DNA of 64,000 nt from Escherichia coli (GTDB taxonomy: Bacteria > Pseudomonadota > Gammaproteobacteria > Enterobacterales > Enterobacteriaceae). The notes beneath the pieces were generated by a model that searched no databases, had not been told where the DNA came from, and saw only the letters and a program-made list of their open reading frames with translations. Positions 48,572-64,000 of this stretch are shown here, piece after piece. The stretch is taken from assembly GCF_024502345.1 (NCBI RefSeq), contig NZ_JALDNN010000001.1; one strand, 5' to 3'. The position numbers and the translations under genes are program-made. Each line of letters opens with the position of its first letter. Within the stretch, counting starts at the first letter, position 1.

Positions 48572-50158
48572 TTAATGCTCGCGGGTCTGGTGGAACTGAA
48601 CGTCCGGATAACGTTCCTGCGCCAGGCGCAGATTGACCATGCTGGTAGCGATGTAAGCGAGGTTATCGCCGCCATCAAGCGCCAGTTGGCTTTCGTTCTT
48701 ACGCTTGAACTCTTCGAATTTCTTCGCGTCCGCACATTCTACCCAGCGGGCAGTGGCAACGTTGACTGACTCATACACTGCTTCAACGTTGTATTCGCTC
48801 TTCAGGCGCGCTACAACCACATCAAACTGCAGCACACCAACTGCACCAACGATCAGGTCGTTGTTGGAGATCGGACGGAACACCTGCACCGCGCCCTCTT
48901 CGGAAAGCTGTACCAGCCCTTTGAGCAGCTGTTTTTGCTTCAGCGGATCTTTCAGGCGGATACGACGGAACAGTTCTGGTGCGAAGTTCGGAATACCGGT
49001 GAACTTCATCATCTCACCCTGGGTAAAGGTGTCGCCGATCTGAATGGTGCCGTGGTTGTGCAGGCCGAGGATATCGCCAGGATACGCTTCTTCAACGTGC
49101 GAACGGTCACCCGCCATAAAGGTCAGCGCGTCAGAGATCACCACGTCTTTCGCGGTGCGCACCTGGCGCAGCTTCATGCCTTTTTCATATTTACCGGATA
49201 CCACGCGCATAAACGCCACGCGGTCGCGGTGTTTCGGGTCCATGTTGGCCTGAATTTTAAATACGAAGCCGGTAAATTTGTCTTCGCTCGCTTGTACGGT
49301 ACGGGTATCAGTCTGACGCGGCATCGGCGCAGGTGCCCACTCCACCAGGCCATCCAACATATGATCGACGCCGAAGTTACCCAGCGCAGTACCGAAGAAT
49401 ACCGGAGTGATTTCGCCCGCAAGGAACAGCTCTTTGTCGAACTCGTTAGACGCGCCTTTAACCAGTTCCAGTTCGTCACGCAGCTGCTGTGCCAGATCTT
49501 CACCAACCGCAGCATCGAGATCCGGGTTATTCAGCCCTTTAACAATGCGGACTTCCTGAATGGTGTGCCCTTTACCGCTCTGATAGAGATAGGTTTCATC
49601 TTTATAAAGGTGGTAAACGCCTTTAAACAGCTTGCCGCAGCCAATCGGCCAGGTGATCGGCGCACAGCCGATTTTCAGCTCGTTCTCAACTTCATCGAGC
49701 AGTTCCATCGGGTCGCGGATATCACGGTCAAGTTTGTTCATAAAGGTGAGGATCGGCGTGTCGCGCAGACGGGTAACTTCCATCAGCTTACGGGTACGAT
49801 CTTCAACACCTTTTGCGGCGTCGATAACCATCAGGCAGCAGTCCACCGCCGTCAGGGTACGATAGGTATCTTCCGAGAAGTCTTCGTGCCCCGGGGTGTC
49901 TAGCAGGTTAACCAGGCAATCGTGATACGGAAACTGCATCACAGACGTAGTAATGGAGATCCCACGCTGCTTTTCCATCTCCATCCAGTCCGACTTAGCG
50001 TGCTGGTTGGAACCACGGCCTTTTACTGTACCAGCGGTCTGAATGGCCTGTCCGAACAGCAGCACCTTCTCGGTGATGGTAGTTTTACCGGCGTCCGGGT
50101 GAGAAATAATTGCAAAGGTTCTTCTTTTCGCTACCTCTGCGGCCAAAAGGCTTGTCAT
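48572..50158 (-). CDS. prfC: Peptide chain release factor 3 (N-terminus differs from K-12)
   Basis: 528-aa from [27 protein letters not shown]...; K-12 RF3 as recalled begins MTLSPYLQEVAKRR. Confidence 0.93.
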
Positions 50159-50176
50159 AATTGTTGTCTCTTTGAT

Positions 50177-50293
50177 TATGTACAATCATATGTACAAAGA
50201 AAAATTCATGCCGCTGATTGTACATTTTGGAGGTATCAGAGCATAGCAGAACATGATCAGTAGGTGTATTTGTAGCCAAAGAACATTTGTACA
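50177..50293. repeat. Cluster of four TGTACA hexamers (two as TATGTACAA spaced 12 bp)
   Basis: TGTACA at 50179, 50191, 50219 and 50288, far above chance; lies between the prfC start and the dinI-like gene. Confidence 0.6.
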
Positions 50294-50346
50294 TGCAGCA
50301 ATCTTTGTTCTATTGACACTGTTTATTCATACAGTTAAAAATAACA

Positions 50347-50362
50347 CTGTATACAAACACAG
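50347..50362 (+). promoter_or_regulatory. LexA (SOS) box upstream of the dinI-like gene
   Basis: ctgtatacaaacacag = CTGT-N8-ACAG, 16 bp upstream of the start codon. Confidence 0.75.
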
Positions 50363-50377
50363 TGTAGAGGGATTTTT

Positions 50378-50626
50378 ATGCGTATTGAGATCTGCATAGC
50401 CAAAGAGAAAATGACTAAAATGCCAAACGGTGCTGTGGATGCGTTAAAGGAAGAATTAACTCGACGCATCAGTAAGCGTTATGACGATGTAGAGGTGATC
50501 GTAAAAGCCACCAGCAACGATGGCCTTTCTGTTACGCGCACCGCCGATAAAGATTCAGCTAAAACTTTTGTTCAGGAAACTCTGAAAGATACCTGGGAGT
50601 CTGCTGACGAGTGGTTTGTTCACTAA
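50378..50626 (+). CDS. DinI-family DNA-damage-inducible protein
   Basis: 82-aa [31 protein letters not shown]...[15 protein letters not shown]; C-terminus resembles DinI (QETWESADDWF). Confidence 0.85.
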
Positions 50627-51052
50627 TTAACACGTAAAATCGGTAACGGCTGGAAATCATTCAATACTCGCACTATCGGAAGTTCACCAGCCAACCGCAG
50701 CACGTTCTTGCATACGACGTGTCTGCGGTTTTTCAACCATTCAGATACAGCACTCTCATCACATTCATTCTTCCGCATTAAAGTATATATGACCATATCA
50801 CCTTAATATTTTTCTTCTTCAGATAAAAATTGTTATCTATGTATACTTTTAAACCGAATCCGTGTAGAGTCTCTACCTAAGTTAGTTCGCAGCTACCCCT
50901 TCAGTTTGCGCCATTAACCTCCTGACTTTTGCCGCTATCTGTAAGCATTCCTGTATACCTGAAACTACAGGGTTCATCTACGAACTTTAAGAACACCCAG
51001 GATAAAAATTGTCAACTATATTATATATAACACCATACTAATTCGAGGCTAT

Positions 51053-51166
51053 ATGAACAGCATACTGATAATCACTTCACTACTTATCATATTCAGCATT
51101 TTTGGTCATGCTCTAATAAAATTAGGGATTGGCATATCCAATAACCCGGACAAAACCGATGTATAA
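51053..51166 (+). CDS. Hypothetical 37-aa hydrophobic peptide
   Basis: [37 protein letters not shown]; GAGG 5 nt upstream of the ATG; promoter-like AT-rich element upstream. Confidence 0.35.
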
Positions 51167-51234
51167 GTCAACATATCCTGAATCAGACATACAATATTGC
51201 AATGAAAACCAATAATATTTTAAGGAATATCTTC

Positions 51235-51468
51235 ATGAAATCAAAAGACACCCTAAAGTGGTTCCCTGCGCAGCTTCCTGAAGTCAGAATTATCCTGGGA
51301 GATGCTGTCGTGGAAGTAGCAAAACAGGGAAGACCTATCAATACCAGAACATTGCTTGATTACATTGAAGGAAACATAAAGAAAAAGTCATGGCTGGATA
51401 ACAAAGAATTATTACAAACAGCGATATCAGTTCTTAAAGACAACCAAAATTTAAATGGTAAAGTGTAA
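51235..51468 (+). CDS. ydfK: YdfK/YnaE-family prophage protein (cold-shock-inducible family in K-12)
   Basis: 77-aa MKSKDTLKWFPAQLPEVRIILGDAVVEVAKQGRPINTRTLLDYIEG...; AGGAA RBS. Confidence 0.7.
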   Translation: MKSKDTLKWFPAQLPEVRIILGDAVVEVAKQGRPINTRTLLDYIEGNIKKKSWLDNKELLQTAISVLKDNQNLNGKV

Positions 51469-51847
51469 TACCTCCCCTGAAAAATAATTTTTCAATGCAT
51501 TAAAAAAATATCAACAACTACGTTATTCCGCAACAACCTACTTTTTTTACCATTTTTCCACTTTAACAACATTTTGCTCCACTTTTCCACGACCAAACAA
51601 CTTAAAATCTGGTTAAAATAACATACAACACTATTATTCGTCTTCCTCGAGTCCGCCCGGAGTTCGAAAAACAAACCGAGTTAAAGCCATTTTTCAAAAA
51701 ATCGATTTTTGGTTACACCAAAATTACGGGACTGCATCCGAATTCGTTTATTTTCGAACGTATACATACAAATATGTACAATAATAAGCGAAATAATTTT
51801 TGGATATGCATTATGATATGTACACCAATTTCGTATAGAGTCTCACT

Positions 51848-52438
51848 ATGTCTCGAATTTTTGCTTACTGTCGGATATCAACGCTGGATCAGACCCCCGA
51901 AAATCAACGCCGGGAAATCGAAAGTGCAGGTTTTAAAATCAAACCTCAGCAAATAATCGAAGAACACATTAGCGGCTCAGCAGCAACCAGTGAGCGTCCT
52001 GGTTTTAACCGGTTGCTTGCTCGCCTGAAATGTGGTGATCAATTGATTGTGACAAAACTGGATCGCCTTGGTTGTAATGCAATGGATATCAGGAAAACAG
52101 TGGAACAACTGACCGAAACAGGTATCAGAGTGCATTGCTTAGCATTGGGGGGCATTGACCTGACCAGTCCAACAGGAAAAATGATGATGCAAGTAATTTC
52201 AGCAGTCGCTGAATTTGAACGAGACCTTTTACTTGAACGCACTCATTCCGGGATAGTAAGAGCCCGGGGCGCAGGGAAACGTTTTGGTCGACCACCTGTG
52301 TTAAATGAAGAACAGAAACAGGTGGTATTCGAACGAATTAAGTCAGGTGTAAGTATAAGTGCCATTGCCCGGGAATTCAAAACCTCGCGGCAAACCATTT
52401 TAAGAGCCAAAGCAAAACTTCAGACACCTGACATATAA
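51848..52438 (+). CDS. pin: Serine recombinase, Pin-like DNA invertase (PinQ/PinR type)
   Basis: 196-aa [15 protein letters not shown]...; resolvase/invertase catalytic N-domain plus C-terminal HTH. Confidence 0.85.
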
Positions 52439-52535
52439 AAAATAATCTCGGTGTGAGATGCTTTACGTCTTCCAAGCCCCCTTCCTTGCCGTAAATGGAA
52501 AGATACATCTAATTATAGAATTTATATGTTTTACC

Positions 52536-53111
52536 CTACGGCAGTGCTGGCCATTCAATATCCTGTGCAGTTGACGTATCAACACGGTTCAGCAATACCC
52601 GATACTTTTTCCATGCTTCCAGCAACGAGATTTCTTCCTCCGTTGCAATTTCCAGATCTGCAGCATCCTGAAGCGGCGCAATATGCTCACTGGCTACCTG
52701 CATCAGGTTGTTTTTTGTTTCTTCCGCCTCCCGGATCCGGAACAGTTTTTCTGCTTCCGTATCCTTCACCCAGGCTGTGCCGTTCCACTTCTGAAACTCC
52801 CCTTCCGGGGATAACCAAGTGACATTTTCCGGTAATGGGCCAAGTTCAGAAATAAATAACGCGTCGCCGGAAGCCACGTCATAGACGGTTTTACCCCGAT
52901 GGTCTTCAACGAGATGCCACGATGCCTCATCACTGTTGAAAACAGCCACAAAGCCAGCCGGAATATCTGGCGGTGCAATATCGGTACTGTTTGCTGGCAG
53001 ACCTGTATGAGGTGGAATATATGCATCACCTTCACCAATAAATTCATTAGTTCCGGCCAGCAGATTATAAATTGTTATGGTCCGTGGTTGTTCACTCATT
53101 CTGAAATCCAT
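52536..53111 (-). CDS. tfa: Tail fibre assembly protein Tfa
   Basis: 191-aa from the ATG preceded by an AGGTG SD; ...[37 protein letters not shown]... as recalled for TfaQ/TfaR. Confidence 0.85.
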
Positions 53112-53119
53112 GTTCACCT

Positions 53120-54022
53120 CTACTTAATATCAGAGACAGAATATTGTTTATTGAACGTATGGGTGTGAGCACCAATAACGATGCTACTTCCGTGGCTATG
53201 TGCGCCAGAGATGACATTACCTACGGGATTTTCTGGATTAATCCGGTGTATATGCGAACCAGGGCGAAACCGGTTATTAGCCTGATGTTGTATCAGTACA
53301 TCATCAGCCTGATGTTCAGGGTTAATACAGACCTGCCCGGAACGTGAGCAATACGTCCGATAATCGCCGCATCCAATATATTTAGTATCCGCATAACGGC
53401 AAACAGAATTACCCGGACAGTATGCATATGTGCCAAATACTGCCGACTGGCGGGATTGTGCGTATTCCCAGTTAATTGATTCTGTTTTTTTATTAAAGTT
53501 ATCCCATGCCTGCTTCATCTGCCGGGCAACACTTTCAAACGGCACCTGACCACATCCGGCTCCCATTGCAGGGAATACCACCGTTTTTATTTTCCTGTCT
53601 GTCGTTGCGTGTTTATTGTGCTGAAAGATGGCAAGCAGAGCGGCCCAGGTTGCGTTATATACAGCGTCTGTTCCGTCAATTGTCAGCGGAACACGCATTG
53701 TTGGCGCATGTACCAGCCAGGGATGATGATTATGCCCCGTTTCAATAACAAATGCAGAACCTACAGGCTGCTCGCCGAGATATTCACGAAGAATATGATT
53801 CTGAACGCGGGACTGTAACTGAGTACCGAAGAATGCGGTAATGGCGGCATCAACACCGCCATCCATCAGGCCGAAACTGTTTGCCGCACTTACCATGCAG
53901 TCAAATTCCCTGATTGTTTCAAATGGCTTTCCGACAATATTCACATTATCTGCATTTGCGAATACCCGCTTAAATGCTTCAGCCATTTCTGTTACTGGTG
54001 CAGAAAGAATGAGCGTAATCAT
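53120..54022 (-). CDS. Macrodomain protein with tail-fibre-like His-x-His C-terminal region
   Basis: Macrodomain motifs [42 protein letters not shown]; C-terminal ...[18 protein letters not shown]; ATG overlaps the stop of the upstream stf fragment. Confidence 0.6.
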
Positions 54023-54186
54023 GCAAGCCTCACAATATAGTTAAATGCGATGTTTTTGACGGTGTTTTCCGCGTTACCAGCAGCGTTAACGGTGATGGTG
54101 TGTCCATGTGACCCTATCGCAACGGAGTGCGTATGAGCACCAATACCGACAGTATGCGCGTGTGCACCTGCAGATACTGCTGTAAA
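54019..54186 (-). pseudogene. Side tail fibre (Stf) C-terminal fragment
   Basis: ...[51 protein letters not shown]; joined out of frame to the terminase fragment upstream. Confidence 0.7.
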
Positions 54187-54892
54187 AACGCATGAAATGT
54201 GCCGACTCGTTAGCGGCTTTTTCGATCTGGCAGGAGCCTTTGATTTTAGGCGTCGAGCCGCGAATGGATTTTGGCCATACAGAGCCCTCAATACGTTTAT
54301 CCCCCAGCAGGGTTGGCGAACCCTCTTTTTCAACATCCGGTTCGAACGAGGAAAGTTCGTCATAGCAGACCACATCCACGGATTTTTCACGGTAGTTTTT
54401 GGCGGCAGCGCCGCCCAGGCACCATAAACCGACGCCCGATGAAAAGCGTTTCAGCGTGAGGGTATTATCACGATGTTTACGACCCAGCCATGGGGAAAGG
54501 TCTTTCAGGCATGGCACGTCCCTAATCGTCGTCTCCACGTGAGACTTCATAAAATCTTCAGCGGCAGAATCCGTGGGCTGAAAAAGCAGACTGTTTCGGG
54601 ATTTATGCTCAATAAAATACCCGACCACCCCCAGCAACATCTTTGTATAGCCAACACGGGCAGATTTAATCAGATTAACTGTGCGGATCTGATCATTCCC
54701 CATACTGTTCATGATGGCGATCTGGAACGGCAGCGTTTTCCATTCGCCGTCACCGTATGAGGATTCTTTCGGCAGATAATAATACTGATCAGCCCATTCA
54801 ACTGCCGTCATCGGTACAACCCTGACCAGAGGCTGCAGCGCAACCGAAACGGCAGCCATCAGATTATTCAGTTGTTGCTCTGATATATTCAT
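54185..54892 (-). pseudogene. Terminase large subunit (lambda gpA-like) N-terminal fragment, about 235 codons
   Basis: MNISEQQLNNL...PMTAVEWADQYYYLPKESSYGDGEWKTLPFQ...[41 protein letters not shown] closely parallels lambda gpA 1-215, then similarity stops. Confidence 0.85.
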
Positions 54893-55370
54893 CCAGCAAA
54901 TCCGGTAATTTATCCCCTGCCCGCGCACACTGATTTGCGCCCTTCGCAATAAGGGTTTTCAGATGGTCAAGATGACGTGGCGTTAAATCCGGGAACTGTC
55001 GCTGCATGGATAACGGAATAGAATCAAGCGTACTGGACAATGCCATCGCCAGCTTGCTGAGGGCGAAAACGCAGAAGTCTGAATCGATGAGCTTACCTTC
55101 GGTTACCTGATTTTTAAGTTTTTGAGCTACGGCCTGTTCTTCTGTCAGTTCAGCTCTGGCCCGAAGCAGCCTTTCCTCCAGATCGCCCCCGTCATCAGGT
55201 GTTCTATGATTGTGTTGTCGCCGCTCGCGATCTATCTCCAGTACAGTTTTAACGTCATAAAAAACTTCCCTCCCCCGACGCTCGACAGGAGGAACGCCCC
55301 ATTTATCAAATGCCTGAACAGAGATACCGATGGAGGAGGCCATATCACTTTTATTCAATAAAAAGGCCAT
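54864..55370 (-). CDS. noh: Terminase small subunit, Nu1-like (Noh)
   Basis: MAFLLNKSDMASSIGISVQAFDKWGV... resembles lambda Nu1; GGAGAGGAG SD; 3' end overlaps the terminase-A fragment start. Confidence 0.8.
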   Translation of the reverse strand: MAFLLNKSDMASSIGISVQAFDKWGVPPVERRGREVFYDVKTVLEIDRERRQHNHRTPDDGGDLEERLLRARAELTEEQAVAQKLKNQVTEGKLIDSDFCVFALSKLAMALSSTLDSIPLSMQRQFPDLTPRHLDHLKTLIAKGANQCARAGDKLPDLLDEYIRATTE

Positions 55371-55797
55371 CTCCTCTCCATAAGTCATCGATAAAAAGCG
55401 ATACAACAACCATGTGTTTTTACAAAACCATTTGATATCATTTAATTTTTTCACATTAATGACATCAAAGCACATCGTAAGGTTGTTGTATTTATTTTAT
55501 TTTCACCTTACTTATCAATTAGATATACCAAACAATTAAACAACAACCACCCCCTCAAAAAATCTCATAAATAGCGAAAAACCGCGAGGTCGCCGCCCCG
55601 TAACCTGTCGGATCGCCGGAAAGGACCCACAAAATGATAATAATTATCATCTACATATCACAACGTGCGTGTACGCCATCAAACCACGTCAAATAATCAA
55701 TTATGACGCAGGTATCGTATTAATTGATCCGCATCAACTTAACGTAAAAACAACTTCAGACAATACAAATCAGCGACACAGAATACGGGACAACCTC

Positions 55798-55989
55798 ATG
55801 TCAACGAAGAACAGAACCCGCAGAACAACAACCCGCAACATCCGCTTTCCTAACCAAATGATTGAACAAATTAACATCGCTCTTGATCAAAAAGGGTCCG
55901 GGAATTTCTCAGCCTGGGTCATTGAAGCCTGCCGTCGGAGACTAACGTCAGAAAAGAGAGCATCTACATCAATCAAAAGTGATGAATAA
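55798..55989 (+). CDS. YlcI/YnfO-family small prophage protein (DUF3950)
   Basis: 63-aa MSTKNRTRRTTTRNIRFPNQMIEQINIALDQKGSGNFSAWVIEACRRRLTSEKRASTSIKSDE. Confidence 0.7.
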   Translation: MSTKNRTRRTTTRNIRFPNQMIEQINIALDQKGSGNFSAWVIEACRRRLTSEKRASTSIKSDE

Positions 55990-56242
55990 TGAATATCCCG
56001 GTTTCTTTACCTCCCCTCCCACCCCGCACAGGACTGGCGAACGTGTGGGACAAATATGTGAGTCATAAACGCCTTATCTTCAGAAATGCAGTTGGCATCC
56101 GAACAGGACGATATTGTAACTTCACCTAATTACGAGGCATTGCAGTAGTTGAATTGTAGTTCTGTATTAGCCTGACAGTGACAGAATGCGATATTGACTC
56201 TGTCACAGGTGAAATAGTTTGAATGGTTAGCAGTTATGGCGA

Positions 56243-56449
56243 TCAGTCAACCACCAGGGAATAATCCTTCGAATTCTTATCGTGCTTCACCAACGCTGCC
56301 TCAATTGCCCTGAATGCTTCCAGAGACACTTGATGTTCTATACATGCAATTACAACATCCGGATAACTCATAGAAATGGTGCTAGTGAGCATAGTTTTTA
56401 CACGGACCTGATCCAAGGATGAGTCATCAGTGTATTGATCTTTATGCAT
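56243..56449 (-). CDS. Hypothetical 68-aa protein (possibly a truncated YdfO-like gene)
   Basis: ORF only; identity uncertain. Confidence 0.35.
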
Positions 56450-56744
56450 TTTGTCGCTCCATGCGTTTGCTCTTCACTTGCGGCTAAAAATATAACGTCA
56501 AATCACTCAGCATGAAAGTGTGAAAGTTTCAGCGCGTTTCCCTTACATAATCTGTCGTTTGTATTCTCTCCAGGCATACCGGAAAGACTAGGTATTGTCA
56601 CACAACCAATACCACCGACTATCGAGATTTATATCTATTCGGTAATGTTTAAATATAAAAAAACCCCGTAAAAACGAGGTTTATGGGTAAATTGTATTGT
56701 TGAATAGCATCTGATAAGAAATTGATGCTAATACTATAAACACA

Positions 56745-56918
56745 CTAGATTAAATCAATCTTGATATCATAGCTTTCAAGACCAGTCATTTTTTCCCGTG
56801 CAGTAAACTGGATACTGGTAACTTCTTTCCCGGTCTTTTTCTTAAGCTCAATAATTTTTTTTGTTATATATTCAGAAATATCTGCTTCTGTTTTTGTTTT
56901 TAACTCTTCAATGTTCAT
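56745..56918 (-). CDS. gnsB: GnsA/GnsB-family protein
   Basis: 57-aa MNIEELKTKTEADISEYITKKIIELKKKTGKEVTSIQFTAREKMTGLESYDIKIDLI. Confidence 0.85.
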   Translation of the reverse strand: MNIEELKTKTEADISEYITKKIIELKKKTGKEVTSIQFTAREKMTGLESYDIKIDLI

Positions 56919-57090
56919 CATTTCCTCTTTTAGTCTGTTATGACTTTCCTGGTACACAGTAGTGTCAATTATATGGAGCAAACGTATAAAAGATAAGATG
57001 AAACATCGCAATAATCAACATACGACAGTCTAAATTTCGCACAAACAGATAAAGATGATTATCCTTTATTATCAAGGCATTAGAATGAAA

Positions 57091-57321
57091 TCAATTCAAG
57101 AGTCTCATTGCTGCTTCCAGAATTTCTTCTGAAGTTACATGTCGATCCGCTGCTACATAAATGACTTTATGATCTCCGGTCAGAGATGGAAACCCTGCAG
57201 CCATTACAGTGAGATGTGTTGTTTCGCCATTTGGATATTCACGCATGATGGTGTTAACTCCGGTCATCACTGGCACTACCATTGCTGGTTCAGAGTTAAA
57301 AAAAACTATTATTTTTTTCAT
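57091..57321 (-). CDS. Hypothetical 76-aa protein
   Basis: MKKIIVFFNSEPAMVVPVMTGVNTIMREYPNGETTHLTVMAAGFPSLTGDHKVIYVAADRHVTSEEILEAAMRLLN. Confidence 0.45.
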   Translation of the reverse strand: MKKIIVFFNSEPAMVVPVMTGVNTIMREYPNGETTHLTVMAAGFPSLTGDHKVIYVAADRHVTSEEILEAAMRLLN

Positions 57322-57363
57322 GATGTTACCGTAATATGTGAGTATCCATCGACTAGACACTAA

Positions 57364-57386
57364 GCAAAAAAGCTCCCGAAGGAGCC
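57364..57386 (-). terminator. Rho-independent terminator (minus strand)
   Basis: gctcccgaaggagc hairpin followed by TTTTTT on the minus strand. Confidence 0.6.
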
Positions 57387-57592
57387 TTCATTTTCACTTT
57401 CTTAAATCTAACGACAGACGGCTAACATTTAAGTATTGTGAAATATTATCAAATGTAATCATCATTGATTTACAAAAGATACATTTTGCCCCGAAAGGAT
57501 TCCTGTCAGAAACATCAAAAGATGATGTTCTATACTGAGAACCATGGCAACACGGGCATCTAAAGTGAATATGGTTTGTAATATTTTCTACC

Positions 57593-57805
57593 TCAAAGTG
57601 CCACTACATGAACAGCCGCGGGGCCTTTAGGTCCGTTCTCAATACCAAATTCGACTTGCTGATTCTCAGTTAACGTTTTGAAATCGTTGCTCTGAATAGC
57701 TGAGAAATGGACAAACACATCTTTGCTACCATCTTTCGGCGTGATGAAACCAAAACCTTTTTCAGGGTTAAACCATTTCACTAAACCAGTCATTTTGTTA
57801 GACAT
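57593..57805 (-). CDS. cspI: Cold shock protein, CspI-like
   Basis: 70-aa [70 protein letters not shown]. Confidence 0.92.
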
Positions 57806-58174
57806 CATTATTACCTTTTGAAGAAGTGAGCCCTTGGGCAGAATGGTCCGAAAAAAAATATCAGAGAGAAAAACCAACAAGGAAATCTCAAGAGGTACAA
57901 ATAATAAAATTATAACAATGACTGCTTCAGATAATTTTGTAACAAACCAGAACACCATTAACGCATGATTAACCAACCATAGCAAGGATTACTTTTGTAA
58001 AGAAAAACACACGAATGAAACAATAGCTTTATTTATTAATAAAACGTGTCATTCTGTCTAATGACCTTTTATCTTACCCTTAAGATTTCAAGGATTTTGA
58101 CTCATGGAAGAGTCCTTTTTATTTAAATTTCACATTCAGCGCTAAAAATAATCCGATTTAATGTTAATCTACAT

Positions 58175-59196
<1,022 letters not shown>

Positions 59197-59301
59197 GGAT
59201 ATTTATCAGGATTTATCGGTTTCTGAACCCTGGATATGTTTATCTGTCCCGGCCTGTTGAATCAGGCGGGGAAAAGGTAAAGACAATCAAGAGGATTATT
59301 T

Positions 59302-59574
59302 ATGGACAATAACACCATTTCTCTACAGGAGTTGCTCGACTGCATTTCAAAGCTTCGGGATGATGTAAATGCCCTCACTGTTGCATTTTCATATTTGGCC
59401 TTATCAATTCCCAGAGAACAAATGCAACCAACACTGGCATCGCTCCTGCTTGAATCACGCAACCCCAAATGGTCCCAGGAACAACAAAATTCTTTCAAGT
59501 GGCTGGCGGCATTACTGGAAGAAAAATATGCTGGTAAAATTACCATTTCGGTGGAGTCTTCAGAGAATCAGTAA
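59302..59574 (+). CDS. Hypothetical 90-aa protein on the opposite strand within the lysis cassette
   Basis: AGGA 7 nt upstream of the ATG; MDNNTISLQELLDCISKLRDDVNALTVAFSYLALSIPREQMQPTLASLLLE... Confidence 0.35.
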   Translation: MDNNTISLQELLDCISKLRDDVNALTVAFSYLALSIPREQMQPTLASLLLESRNPKWSQEQQNSFKWLAALLEEKYAGKITISVESSENQ

Positions 59575-59884
59575 TTCTTCCTGGTAGCTTTCCTTTGTAG
59601 GTTATCCACACATTCTGCGCCTCTAAAATTACGGGGCGCTTTTCCGGCGACTGCTCATCCCCTTCACATAACCCGGCTGCAACTTCCAGGAAGACCTGTC
59701 TGATGCTCCTTCTGGCTGCTGCCTCATAAAACTCCAGCGCGGCACCTTCAACACGGTCCAGCGAGATGTCCAGGTCAAAAATTTCACCGTCAAAGCGTTT
59801 TTTGTCCCTTAATGCTACAGTTACCGCAACTTTATTCTCAAAATTGCGGATCCCTTTCACAATCAGTTCATAGTTTTGTGTCAT
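59540..59884 (-). CDS. YdfR-like prophage protein (DUF1327)
   Basis: MTQNYELIVKGIRNFENKVAVTVALRDKKRFDGEIFDLDISLDRVEGAALEFYEAAARRS... Confidence 0.65.
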   Translation of the reverse strand: MTQNYELIVKGIRNFENKVAVTVALRDKKRFDGEIFDLDISLDRVEGAALEFYEAAARRSIRQVFLEVAAGLCEGDEQSPEKRPVILEAQNVWITYKGKLPGRITDSLKTPPKW

Positions 59885-59888
59885 TGAA

Positions 59889-60104
59889 TTACTCTCCCCG
59901 TGCAACCTTACGCTTGTCTTCTTTAATCTTGAAATAAAGGTTTGTCAGGTACGTCAGCAAGCCAAATACCAGACTACCCAGCACACCGATTGCAGCCCAC
60001 TGTGACGGAGTTACTTTATCGAGTAACTGCAATGCCCAGAAACCAGCATTACCAGCCGATGTGCCATAGGCGATACCTGTTGTTAACTTATCCATTGATT
60101 TCAT
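59889..60104 (-). CDS. Phage holin (EssQ/EssD type)
   Basis: 71-aa [71 protein letters not shown]. Confidence 0.88.
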
Positions 60105-60322
60105 ATCCTCACCCCGATGTACACAGATGGTGCAATATGTTTGAAAAGATCGGAGTCTATGGGGTAGTTTTTATAGCAAACGTTGTTCTCAACGGCGCTA
60201 AAAAACAGACACATTAAAAATGTGGGTAATTATTTTAAAAGAAAATCATATATTAAATAATAATACGAGATATGTTTTCATATTTAGTGTACTGTATACG
60301 GCCATTTATACAGGAAAAGCCT

Positions 60323-60493
60323 ATGTCAGAACGTAAAGACTCAAAATCACGCCGTAATTATCTCGTTAAATGTTCCTGCCCAAACTGCACCCAAGAGTCA
60401 GAACACAGTTTTTCAAGAGTACAAAAAGGTGCCCTTTTGATCTGCCCTCATTGCAACAAAGTATTCCAGACAAATCTTAAAGCTGTAGCTTGA
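60323..60493 (+). CDS. Small zinc-ribbon protein (56 aa)
   Basis: MSERKDSKSRRNYLVKCSCPNCTQESEHSFSRVQKGALLICPHCNKVFQTNLKAVA; CxCPNC...CPHC; AGGAAAAG RBS. Confidence 0.55.
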   Translation: MSERKDSKSRRNYLVKCSCPNCTQESEHSFSRVQKGALLICPHCNKVFQTNLKAVA

Positions 60494-60552
60494 TTGATTT
60501 TATTCGTAACAAGTATTTTTTATATTTTAATAACATATTTAAAGCAGATAAT

Positions 60553-60576
60553 AAAAAACCCGCCTGAGCGGGTTTA
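60553..60576. terminator. Bidirectional rho-independent terminator
   Basis: aaaaaacccgcctgagcgggttt. Confidence 0.7.
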
Positions 60577-60856
60577 ATATTGTGGTACTTTTTGTGGGAG
60601 TCATCCACTTACGCACTTTGTTTTGCTATGCCAGCAGTTAGCTTCTGCTGTAAAACTATTCATGCAGCAAACCTGCACTTCACCACAATGGTTAGCATAC
60701 TTTTCCTGATTAAGTTATTGCCAAATATGCTGGCCATTGTTTCATGTATTGGACCTCCTTACTCTTTATTAAAGAGATCCAATATTCACCACTCTGTCTG
60801 TATCTCCACTCAGGCATCAGCCTTCTTCGTTATCGTATACAGACAAACTATGAATT

Positions 60857-61072
60857 TTAATCAGTAATTATGACATTTGCTGCTGCAGGACCTTTAGCAC
60901 CACTCTCTACAGAGAAGGTAACCTTTTGACCTTCAAATAAGATTCGATAATTATCATTCTGAATCGCAGAAAAATGCACAAACACATCTTTACTACCATC
61001 AACAGGAGAAATAAAGCCAAAACCTTTATCAGCGTTAAACCATTTTACTAAACCAGTCATTTTATTTGACAT
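60857..61072 (-). CDS. cspB: Cold shock protein, CspB-like
   Basis: 71-aa [71 protein letters not shown]. Confidence 0.92.
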
Positions 61073-61372
61073 TCTACATTCCTTAACTTGAGCCTTTCGG
61101 CATAAATGGCTTGTATAACAGAAACGACTTCGTACTTAATTGGAGAGACTCAAAGAAGGAATAAGTGAATAACACCTGAAATGAGAACTGCTTTAGTAAA
61201 CTACTTCGTATATCGTCTGTTCTTCAAACCGACGCAATCATTAACGCATAGTTGAACATATGAAGCAATGTTTATTTTAGACATCCAGCCATCTTCAACC
61301 CCATCAAAAAACTATAGCTTTCTTCAGGAACGTGTGTATAGTGCGCCAAGTTATCAGTATTAAGGAATTTTT

Positions 61373-61585
61373 TTGTCCCGTAAAATGACAGGAATTCTCA
61401 AAACCTTTGACGGCAAAAGCGGCAAAGGTCTTATAACCCCATCCGATGGTCGTATCGATGTCCAGCTTCATGTTTCAGCGCTCAATCTCCGCGATGCAGA
61501 AGAAATTACCACCGGATTACGCGTGGAATTTTGCCGGATAAATGGTCTGCGTGGACCATCAGCTGCCAATGTTTACCTTTCATGA
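61373..61585 (+). CDS. cspF: Cold shock-like protein, CspF/CspH type
   Basis: 70-aa [70 protein letters not shown]. Confidence 0.88.
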
Positions 61586-61639
61586 GCTATATTAAAGCTT
61601 TAACTTCAAGCCCCATCGAATCAAACATGGAGAGTTTTC

Positions 61640-61729
61640 ATGAATAAACCCGTCTGTCTTGATGACTGGTTGATTGGCTTTAAAAGCTTATGCTGTACTT
61701 TGACCTTAATAGCTCTGCTAATAATGTAA
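61640..61729 (+). CDS. Hypothetical 29-aa hydrophobic peptide
   Basis: [29 protein letters not shown]; GGAGAG SD 6 nt upstream. Confidence 0.3.
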
Positions 61730-61876
61730 TAAGCAGACTCATTGTATCTATGGACATTGTACTGGAAGAAAACATTTTAAACATCAGGCAAAAAACAAAG
61801 TCACCCGATAAATAATAAGTAAACTAACATGAATCCCGTAATGAGATTCAACATCTCTATTACCCTATTTAAAGCA

Positions 61877-61912
61877 CAAAAACCCGCTCATCAGCGGGTT
61901 TTCTACTTTTTC
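61877..61912 (+). terminator. Rho-independent terminator
   Basis: aacccgctcatcagcgggtt hairpin followed by a T run. Confidence 0.7.
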
Positions 61913-62007
61913 TTAACTTCGGGTATACAAAGCCCATCGTTGAAAAAATTTTATCCATATTTTTTGAAAAATGCAAGCATCACGTCGCCATCTTCGGCGA
62001 AAATCAC

Positions 62008-62760
62008 TTATCTCGTCACCTTTCTCAATTGTGCTTCAGCGTAAGATTCCTCCTGCCAGCACTTTGTAACCAGTTTATCAATGACATTTGCATATCCTTT
62101 ATACCACTGATAATCACTCAGGTCCGGTACCAGCTTCTGGACATGATGCCGCGCCAGTGTGGTTGGTAAACGACTAAACCGTTTTCCATTGCAACGCCCA
62201 CAAATCTTATAAACAGGTGTGCCATGAAGCCGGGTCCTTTTTTCATCCAAGACAATACCTTTACCCTTACACCCTCTGCACGCTGTGCTGACTTCTCCCT
62301 TACCATGGCAATGCTGACATAGTTCCTTCACCCACTCTTCTTTGATAACAGATTCCCCGCTTCTGGAGTGTTTCACCACTTCGCGCAATACATTATGAAA
62401 TCCAGTACCAGCACAATGCTCACAACGAGCCTTACTTGCCGCAGACCTGGAATAATCAGCAAAGGCAAAATTCACAAGGTAAGGAATAATCTGTAGCCGG
62501 GTTTCTTCACTCAATTTATTCAATGTCGGGTTATCCAGTGCCATCGCGTAATTGAGCAGACCTTCAATCGCAAACTGAGGATCCTGAACACCAACTTTTG
62601 CCAGGAATAAGGCAAACCCAAGCGGTGCTTTCGACTGCACCATCCCCTGCGCAGCCATCACATCCGTAATCGTTAAACCACCAGAGCCTGTCGCCGGTGC
62701 GTCATCACTCAATTTTGGAGATTTTGGGGAGTAATATTTTGGTAAGGCTTCAAGGTTCAT
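62008..62760 (-). CDS. Late-gene antiterminator Q (QuuQ/YdfT type)
   Basis: 250-aa ORF with Cys-rich zinc-finger-like segment CEHCAGTG...CQHCHGKGE...CRGCKGKG...CGRCNGK. Confidence 0.8.
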   Translation of the reverse strand: MNLEALPKYYSPKSPKLSDDAPATGSGGLTITDVMAAQGMVQSKAPLGFALFLAKVGVQDPQFAIEGLLNYAMALDNPTLNKLSEETRLQIIPYLVNFAFADYSRSAASKARCEHCAGTGFHNVLREVVKHSRSGESVIKEEWVKELCQHCHGKGEVSTACRGCKGKGIVLDEKRTRLHGTPVYKICGRCNGKRFSRLPTTLARHHVQKLVPDLSDYQWYKGYANVIDKLVTKCWQEESYAEAQLRKVTR

Positions 62761-62820
62761 GCTCGTTCTCCACTTACGCCAGTACGCCTATTGCCAGCGC
62801 ACGATCGATAAAACGAAATA

Positions 62821-63171
62821 TCAGCTCCAGCTGGGAGCCATACTTCTCTTCAAATGCCACGGTAAACGCTGGTTAATATCGGCATTGTCCACATCCTCGA
62901 CGTCAGGAAGAGACACAAAGACGCCATTTGCAGACTGCGCCACAGCGTCAGCAATGAAGTGAGTGCCACCAGCACGTTGTAAAATCATTGCCCATCCCAG
63001 CGGGAAAATCTGATCGCCATCGGCACGAAGGCGGTTAAATAATGCGTTCTCTGTTACATCCAGCCACTCAGCAGCTTCAGCGTACCCCACCGGCAACGCC
63101 GCGATAGTTTTTCTGACAGCTTTCACGTACCACTCAGGCTGTTTTTCCACTTTCCAGTGATGATTACCCAC
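62821..63171 (-). CDS. Hypothetical early-region protein, possibly CII-like regulator
   Basis: 116-aa, GTG start, immediately downstream of cro; family not identified. Confidence 0.45.
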   Translation of the reverse strand: MGNHHWKVEKQPEWYVKAVRKTIAALPVGYAEAAEWLDVTENALFNRLRADGDQIFPLGWAMILQRAGGTHFIADAVAQSANGVFVSLPDVEDVDNADINQRLPWHLKRSMAPSWS

Positions 63172-63424
63172 GGCTTACCTCCTGTTCCTGTGGTTTAAAC
63201 CCATTCTGGTTTTGGCTAGATTGAAAACGTGCCGGATAAAGAATCTGCATTTCGCTGATTTCACCCTTAAAAAAATTGGCCAGACGTTCTGCAAGATCGA
63301 TAGATGGAATTTGTTCCAGTCTTTCAATACGACTCAGCGTCGCTGGATTGACCTGAACGCCAGCAGCAACATGCTGCAAAGTAAATCCGTGCGCCTTACG
63401 CACATTCCGTAATGGTGATTGCAT
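63164..63424 (-). CDS. Cro-like HTH (XRE family) regulator
   Basis: 86-aa MQSPLRNVRKAHGFTLQHVAAGVQVNPATLSRIERLEQIPSIDLAERLANFF...; divergent from cI. Confidence 0.75.
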   Translation of the reverse strand: MQSPLRNVRKAHGFTLQHVAAGVQVNPATLSRIERLEQIPSIDLAERLANFFKGEISEMQILYPARFQSSQNQNGFKPQEQEVSRG

Positions 63425-63438
63425 ATGACCTCCACATA

Positions 63439-63501
63439 TTGCGTGATGAGCATATTATTTCACGCAAATATTTTGCGCAAGTTGATTTGCTTAACGCGCA
63501 A
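63439..63501. promoter_or_regulatory. Two dyad-symmetric operator candidates between cro and cI
   Basis: TTGCGTGA-N13-TCACGCAA at 63439-63467 and TTGCGCAA-N13-TTGCGCAA-type dyad at 63473-63501. Confidence 0.6.
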
Positions 63502-63521
63502 TAAAGAAATGTAATAAACGC

Positions 63522-64000
63522 ATGAACATAGGAAACCGAGTCAGACAACTTCGCCAAGCGAAGAACATGAAAATCGCCGATCTCGCTGAAGCAATAGGAG
63601 TGGATGCGGCGAATATCTCACGCCTGGAAACAGGTAAGCAGAAACAATTCACTGAACAAGCCCTGAGTAATATTGCCAGGAGCTTAGGTGTTGATATTGC
63701 TGATCTCTTTACCTCAGACTTCAAAAGTAATACTGTATGTAAAAACAGTGTTAGTGAGGATGTTGCGCAGGTGAAGGATGTATTCCGTATTGAAATGCTG
63801 GATGTCAGTGCCAGTGCGGGAAATGGCCTTATCCAGGGCGGTGATGTCATTGATGTGATTCATGCCATTGAATACAGAACTGATAATGCTGTATCGATGT
63901 TTGGCGGACGGCCAGCCAATCACATTAAAGTTATCAACGTTCGTGGGGACAGTATGTGTCCAACCATTGAGCCAGGAGATCTCATCTTCGTTGATGTCAG
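63522..64000 (+). CDS. CI-like repressor (HTH plus S24 LexA-type peptidase domain), truncated by window end
   Basis: MNIGNRVRQLRQAKNMKIADLAEAIGVDAANISRLETGKQ...VINVRGDSMCPTIEPGDLIFVDV; open to the last base. Confidence 0.8.
   Translation, partial: MNIGNRVRQLRQAKNMKIADLAEAIGVDAANISRLETGKQKQFTEQALSNIARSLGVDIADLFTSDFKSNTVCKNSVSEDVAQVKDVFRIEMLDVSASAGNGLIQGGDVIDVIHAIEYRTDNAVSMFGGRPANHIKVINVRGDSMCPTIEPGDLIFVDV

Follow-up and report, generated by a model that had tools for sequence, protein, structure and literature searches.

A lambdoid prophage junction in prfC of Escherichia coli at which the first 16 codons of the RF3 gene are supplied by the phage

[quoted passage not shown] In an O103 strain, Ogura et al. 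(2007; PMC2323221) found prfC occupied by a Stx1 phage, its N terminus changed and its own promoter and ribosome-binding site lost, and stated that transcription and translation of the hybrid prfC were not known. Many Stx1a and Stx2c phages were subsequently mapped at prfC (Nakamura et al. 2023; PMC10132054). The integrase of phage cdtI and Int-SXT fall into one cluster targeting prfC (Smyshlyaev et al. 2021), and the SXT/R391 elements are characterized by an Int-SXT that is almost the same in all of them and by conservation of the conjugative backbone (Wozniak 2009). At this prfC site, SXT has been reported to supply a working promoter. Comparable solutions exist at other genes. The dusA-specific islands, inserted at the 5' end of dusA, keep the host gene intact while giving it an altered N terminus and a promoter of their own. 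Phage 21 and e14 use the 3' end of icd; they carry the displaced gene end, and no promoter replacement is needed.

The DNA analyzed here (the window) is a stretch of 64,000 nucleotides from E. coli. An earlier reading of the letters alone (the original prediction) had called prfC a reported integration site of lambdoid and Stx phages, which agrees with the above literature on Stx and Cdt phages. To what was known, our analysis adds (i) the exact 14-bp core together with the full extent of the replacement, which is 16 codons, (ii) the crossover codons and the arm-site layout that are common to phages and SXT/R391 elements, and (iii) the scoring of prfC in such strains as repaired and not as disrupted.

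The hybrid prfC gene and the attachment core

In the window, prfC is an intact open reading frame (ORF) of 528 codons on the minus strand (48572-50158), with its ATG at 50158. We aligned its 5' end and the encoded protein with K-12 prfC (reference locus L002, 171-1760, minus strand). From the residues EVAKRR to the C terminus, 520 of 521 residues are the same as in K-12 RF3, the sole difference being Q289 in place of E, so that the predicted substitution of the N terminus, with the rest of the protein matching K-12, is confirmed. Only the first 7 residues are visibly changed, whereas the foreign segment comprises 16 codons (50111-50158, 48 nt, minus strand) and has the same sequence in the attP of phage cdtI and at the ends of Stx2c phages. 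Codons 8 to 16 (EVAKRRTFA) are also borne by the phage; they differ from K-12 at 8 nucleotides, all of them synonymous. Because these codons are prfC-like, megablast identity with K-12 reaches as far as about 50138. The original prediction of foreign codons at the prfC 5' end is refined in this respect, the junction lying 48 nt inside the coding sequence. The host-derived part (48572-50096, minus strand), which begins with the codon following the core and runs through the stop codon, is collinear with K-12 prfC. When the core is included (1,539 nt up to the stop codon), the codon differences from K-12 are 21 synonymous and 1 nonsynonymous. At the position of Q289 (49292-49294, minus strand), K-12 and two other lysogens have E; the RF3 of these same two lysogens has S450 where the window has A. 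RefSeq uses the same ATG as the start codon in lysogens, and prfC is annotated as intact in those that we inspected.

The junction was resolved by a four-way alignment, in which the window and K-12 were set against the cdtI attachment region (circular record NC_009514) and a terminal sequence from an Stx2c prophage record; in addition, the flanks of every core copy were compared. Left of GGGTGAGAAATAAT (50097-50110, without strand assignment), the attR of the window is identical to the attB of K-12; on the right side it is identical to the attP of cdtI, and K-12 diverges. The upstream DNA and prfC 5' sequence of K-12 are therefore different from those of the window. Apart from these 14 bp, K-12 attB, cdtI attP, and the window junction have no stretch in common. 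The core, ATTATTTCTCACCC on the coding strand, encodes the residues I-I-S-H-P, with which the GTPase P-loop begins. The cdtI attP sequence left of it bears no relation to prfC. The core occurs once in the 64-kb window (0.03 copies expected by chance), and the same 14 bp are annotated as a “duplication due to insertion” in GenBank record LC727876, one of the CC119 Stx phage records. [quoted passage not shown]

The phage side of the junction is closely related to sequences of known phages. Between 50111 and 50400, the window differs from the cdtI attP at two bases, both near the promoter of the dinI-like gene (see below), with no difference over the ~230 nt next to the core. A 601-nt junction probe showed 98 to 100% identity to phages cdtI, 2H10, and PhiR63_1. 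The attP arm of the window is contained in the free-phage records of cdtI and 2H10, the record of PhiR63_1 ends at the core, and the contiguous attP with both arms was examined in cdtI. Many Stx1a and Stx2c phages are 97% identical to the window in the attachment arm adjoining prfC. The inverted sequences AATTATT and AATAATT stand on either side of the attP core and may belong to core-type sites with an overlap of roughly 7 to 9 bp between them. An ORF of cdtI that runs across attP (orf31) was considered as a prfC-like frame and discarded, as it lies in a different frame and is not meaningful.

The prophage, its other end, and the integrase

Upstream of prfC, where K-12 has yjjG, the window continues with a DinI-like gene and then with lambdoid prophage genes, in agreement with the prophage DNA that the original prediction placed there. 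We transferred annotation by blastn from the three related lysogens described below (L004, L005, and L013), and by this the region from 50111 to 64000, which runs off the window end and has no strand of its own, is a deleted lambdoid (Qin-like) prophage remnant. The gene order starting at prfC is dinI-like, ynfT, ydfK, a pin-type invertase, tail-fibre fragments, and a terminase fragment, followed by gnsB/ynfN/cspI, a lysis cassette, cspB/cspF, Q (62008-62760), and an immunity region at 62862. The Q antiterminator, the lysis cassette of holin, lysozyme, and Rz, the tail-fibre genes, and the terminase stand in lambda order, as in a lambdoid phage. Because many modules are deleted, the prophage is defective. 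No record among complete E. coli genomes or phages contained an unbroken match to at least 80% of 50111-64000. The prophage is a mosaic remnant, in which the tail-fibre fragments adjoin the terminase fragment near 54183; Q directly precedes the immunity region, so that the replication, DUF968, KilA-N, and RusA genes of the relatives are missing. Around the pin-type invertase no convincing inverted repeats were found, and the part of the prophage within the window contains neither stx nor cdt genes.

The first prophage gene (50378-50626, plus strand) is annotated as a member of the DinI-like family in lysogens and in phages cdtI and 2H10. It is preceded by a promoter-like site on the plus strand (50313-50362), divergent from prfC and composed of TTGACA, an 18-nt spacer, and AAAAAT, together with two tandem LexA boxes. 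Both boxes, CTGTTTATTCATACAG and CTGTATACAAACACAG at 50319-50334 and 50347-50362, are perfect and lie between the TTGACA −35 element and the dinI-like start codon. The pattern CTGT-N8-ACAG has three matches in the window, with 0.57 expected by chance. Because two perfect tandem LexA boxes stand before its start codon, the prophage dinI-like gene looks SOS-regulated. The third perfect match (63733-63748) falls close to the end of the window, within the immunity region of the prophage. What resembled a terminator at 50365-50344 turned out to be the palindrome of a LexA box.

The other prophage end lies beyond position 64000, and relatives with complete genomes show how it is built. Three complete genomes have the same junction: CH4799, with a prophage of 44.7 kb, 2013C-4974 (23.5 kb), and Z0117EC0005 (23.8 kb). 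At the far end, each of them has a tyrosine integrase of 407 amino acids, a phage arm of ~230 bp, and a second exact copy of the core, beyond which follow the native prfC start as a 24-codon stub, the native spacer, and yjjG. In these lysogens (L004, L005, and L013), both prophage ends thus hold the core. The shared core repeat and the integrase that had been anticipated at the other end are thus found in the three complete relatives, whereas the window itself has a single core; by analogy with these relatives, the strain analyzed here probably has a second core copy and an integrase end outside the window. In the far-end structure, the native prfC promoter and the 24-codon stub point into the integrase gene (L004, 45451-45519 and 44001-45224; also in L005 and L013), and no terminator-like site was found between the stub and int in L004, nor in L005 and L013. 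Transcription from the host prfC promoter at attL may therefore extend into int in the lysogen.

A junction of the window type, defined by a match to at least 80% of the 601-nt probe, is present in 657 of 5,426 complete E. coli genomes, and 4,717 of the 5,426 have an uninterrupted site of the K-12 type. Where the site is split, the core is the exact starting point of the attL fragments. The O26 strain 11368, in which the alignment stops at 50119, was examined as a possible second junction type and has an empty site.

The integrase-distal arm of the phage attachment site, which forms the new prfC upstream region (50159-50377, no strand), contains TGTACA four times (50179-84, 50191-96, 50219-24, and 50288-93). 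The window has 12 copies of this hexamer, 4 of them within 115 bp (50179-50293). The cdtI attP locus has eight copies, four per arm, none of them farther than 235 bp from the core. The four TGTACA motifs of the window are most likely arm-type binding sites of the integrase. The integrase of the related lysogens has the domains Arm-DNA-bind_3, Phage_int_M, and Phage_integrase, which are typical of tyrosine recombinases of the P4/SXT type, and in the related loci it is 97 to 99% identical to the cdtI integrase. In the phage collection, the integrases of 95 to 99% identity are followed next by that of Gifsy-1 at 45%, and none of the phages in this collection has one of intermediate identity. A Vibrio diabolicus island with a 52% identical integrase interrupts the native prfC at the same ATTATTTCTCACCC, and there, too, TGTACA repeats precede the integrase gene. 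Integrases of ~51% identity were seen elsewhere, on a Morganella contig downstream of trkA (L008, 6001-7209) and in Shewanella downstream of pnp and a TPR lipoprotein gene (L010 to L012, 4001-5206). Since these Morganella and Shewanella integrases sit at other loci, the choice of target changes within this integrase group.

We consider it very probable that a phage of the cdtI type, lambdoid in its gene content, integrated in prfC and that the hybrid gene was rebuilt from a phage-borne start. Strand exchange would have taken place within the 14-bp identity at 50097-50110. The attP holds a prfC-like start of its own beside the core, an ATG plus 16 codons, and integration would have joined this start to the prfC body, giving an intact prfC of 528 codons whose ribosome-binding site and upstream region are phage DNA. 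The native promoter and ribosome-binding site and the first 17 codons would then remain at the other prophage end, beside the integrase gene. Most structural and replication genes would have been lost later, while the hybrid prfC was kept intact.

Promoter and expression of the hybrid prfC gene

A scan with the sigma-70 consensus on the prfC strand between 49900 and 50700 gave no site, and between 50159 and 50700 this strand has no match of at least 9 of 12 positions. A relaxed scan of the minus strand gave three candidates with 8 of 12 positions (50268-50240, 50214-50185, and 50203-50175). The first of these has an extended −10 element, TGCTATGCT, ending at 50240; the −10 elements of the other two, TATGAT (ending at 50185) and CATAAT (ending at 50175), overlap TGTACA motifs. 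The yjjG-prfC spacer of K-12 contains a 9/12 sigma-70 site, which sits at attL after integration. From the SXT precedent and the intact prfC, we infer that the phage DNA may supply a replacement promoter, as the original prediction had proposed, and it is from phage DNA that the hybrid prfC would be transcribed.

A different outcome of the same event would be that the reading frame was restored and the gene is nevertheless silent or strongly down-regulated, a state that could be tolerated as RF3 is not essential. In keeping with such silencing, the candidates upstream on the prfC strand reach 8/12 at best and the 9/12 site of K-12 stays at attL; Ogura et al. (2007; PMC2323221) gave expression as not known and pointed to the absence of prfC from the list of essential genes; and a prophage survey (Bobay 2013) scored prfC as disrupted. 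The coding sequence has a further feature of this kind. Codons 12 and 13 of prfC (50120-50125, minus strand) are AGA AGA from the phage, in place of CGC CGC in K-12. AGA is the rarest Arg codon in E. coli. Two such codons in tandem could lower the translation of RF3 and would also fit silencing. The corresponding codons in SXT/R391 are CGA AGG, likewise rare. Against silencing, the ORF is intact in a prophage old enough for most of its genes to have been lost, and 21 synonymous changes stand against 1 nonsynonymous change. Furthermore, the phage-borne codons 8 to 16 keep the RF3 residues despite 8 nucleotide changes, RefSeq annotates prfC as intact in the lysogens inspected, and SXT is reported to give a working promoter at the same site. 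We counted both the intact ORF and the retained residues in favor of expression of the hybrid gene, and we regard silencing as unlikely.

An expressed hybrid prfC would be read from an upstream region with an unusual content: TGTACA motifs lie within 40 bp of the start codon, and the two LexA boxes are ~160 to 200 bp upstream of it; the tandem AGA codons come in addition. The prophage might accordingly rewire RF3 expression, and the RF3 level in ~12% of E. coli strains could depend on the prophage integrase or on the SOS state, an idea to which we give little credence. For annotation, an RF3 with this altered N terminus marks a prophage or prophage remnant at prfC, and prfC in such strains should be scored as repaired, not as disrupted, contrary to the prophage survey of Bobay (2013).

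Relation to SXT/R391 and other elements at gene ends

To compare the junction with that of SXT/R391 elements, a published SXT right-junction primer was used to collect 35 loci from genomes of 34 species, and the junction was present in 34 of the loci. The elements supply 17 codons ending in KRRTFA; the supplied peptide is MANQDFLNEINKRRTFA in 32 of the 34 junctions and carries single substitutions in the other two. The junctions are conserved up to ATCATCTC. From the Ser codon on they show host-type wobble variation, which places the SXT/R391 crossover in the same I-I-S-H-P codons. The SXT core, said to have been described by Hochhut and Waldor in 1999, is reportedly a near-identity of 17 bp, in contrast to the exact identity of 14 bp in the phage. 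Another likeness is found in the arm: a pair of TGTACA motifs 12 bp apart is located 87 and 75 bp before the core in SXT/R391 (32 of 34 junctions) and 86 and 74 bp before it in the window. Located ~200 to 600 bp before the junction, the SXT/R391 loci (L015 to L048) have a gene whose product has a LexA/CI-type C-terminal region and is presumably SetR.

The same target codons and the paired TGTACA at the same distance from the core are what the right end of an SXT/R391-type integrative conjugative element would show, and the junction could be read as such an end in place of a phage end. However, the peptide of the window differs from MANQDFLNEINKRRTFA, its flank is made up of dinI-like, tail-fibre, lysis, and Q genes instead of a SetR-like repressor gene, and the integrase of the related loci is 97 to 99% identical to that of phage cdtI, so that we give an SXT/R391 end practically no chance. 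Nor does an ordinary prfC allele, or a product of homologous recombination or of a deletion in place of site-specific integration, deserve serious consideration: the prfC-like nature of the phage-borne segment, with K-12 identity to about 50138 by megablast, would suit it, but from 50111 on the window matches a free-phage attP with a sharp switch at the core, three complete genomes have a second core copy at the far prophage end, and the 4,717 genomes with an empty site have an uninterrupted K-12-type prfC 5' end and yjjG.

Integration of a cdtI-type phage thus remains the preferred reading, and the prfC phages carrying stx (Stx1/Stx2c) or cdt (Cdt-I) genes are the closest described relatives (cdtI, AB285204/NC_009514; phages of O103 and CC119 strains). 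With an arm 97 to 100% identical, they share with the window the same core and the same 16 codons. They carry stx or cdt, whereas the window prophage is a heavily deleted Qin-like remnant. The SXT/R391 elements are conjugative elements and not phages, and their arm sequence differs from that of the window. The gene beside prfC differs as well, being a setR-like repressor gene that reads towards prfC in SXT/R391 and a divergent dinI-like gene in the window. Read-through from the SetR-like gene could contribute to prfC expression in SXT/R391, and the phage arm has no equivalent gene. With a lambdoid flank and with a prfC start and an arm that differ from the SXT consensus, the locus is, judged by its sequence, one that would work like SXT but lies outside the SXT/R391 family. 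That lambdoid phages and SXT/R391 have these five codons and the arm-site layout in common points to a shared recombination module. In a wider comparison, the elements at icd and dusA resemble the window prophage in carrying a copy of the displaced gene end, while the target gene differs.
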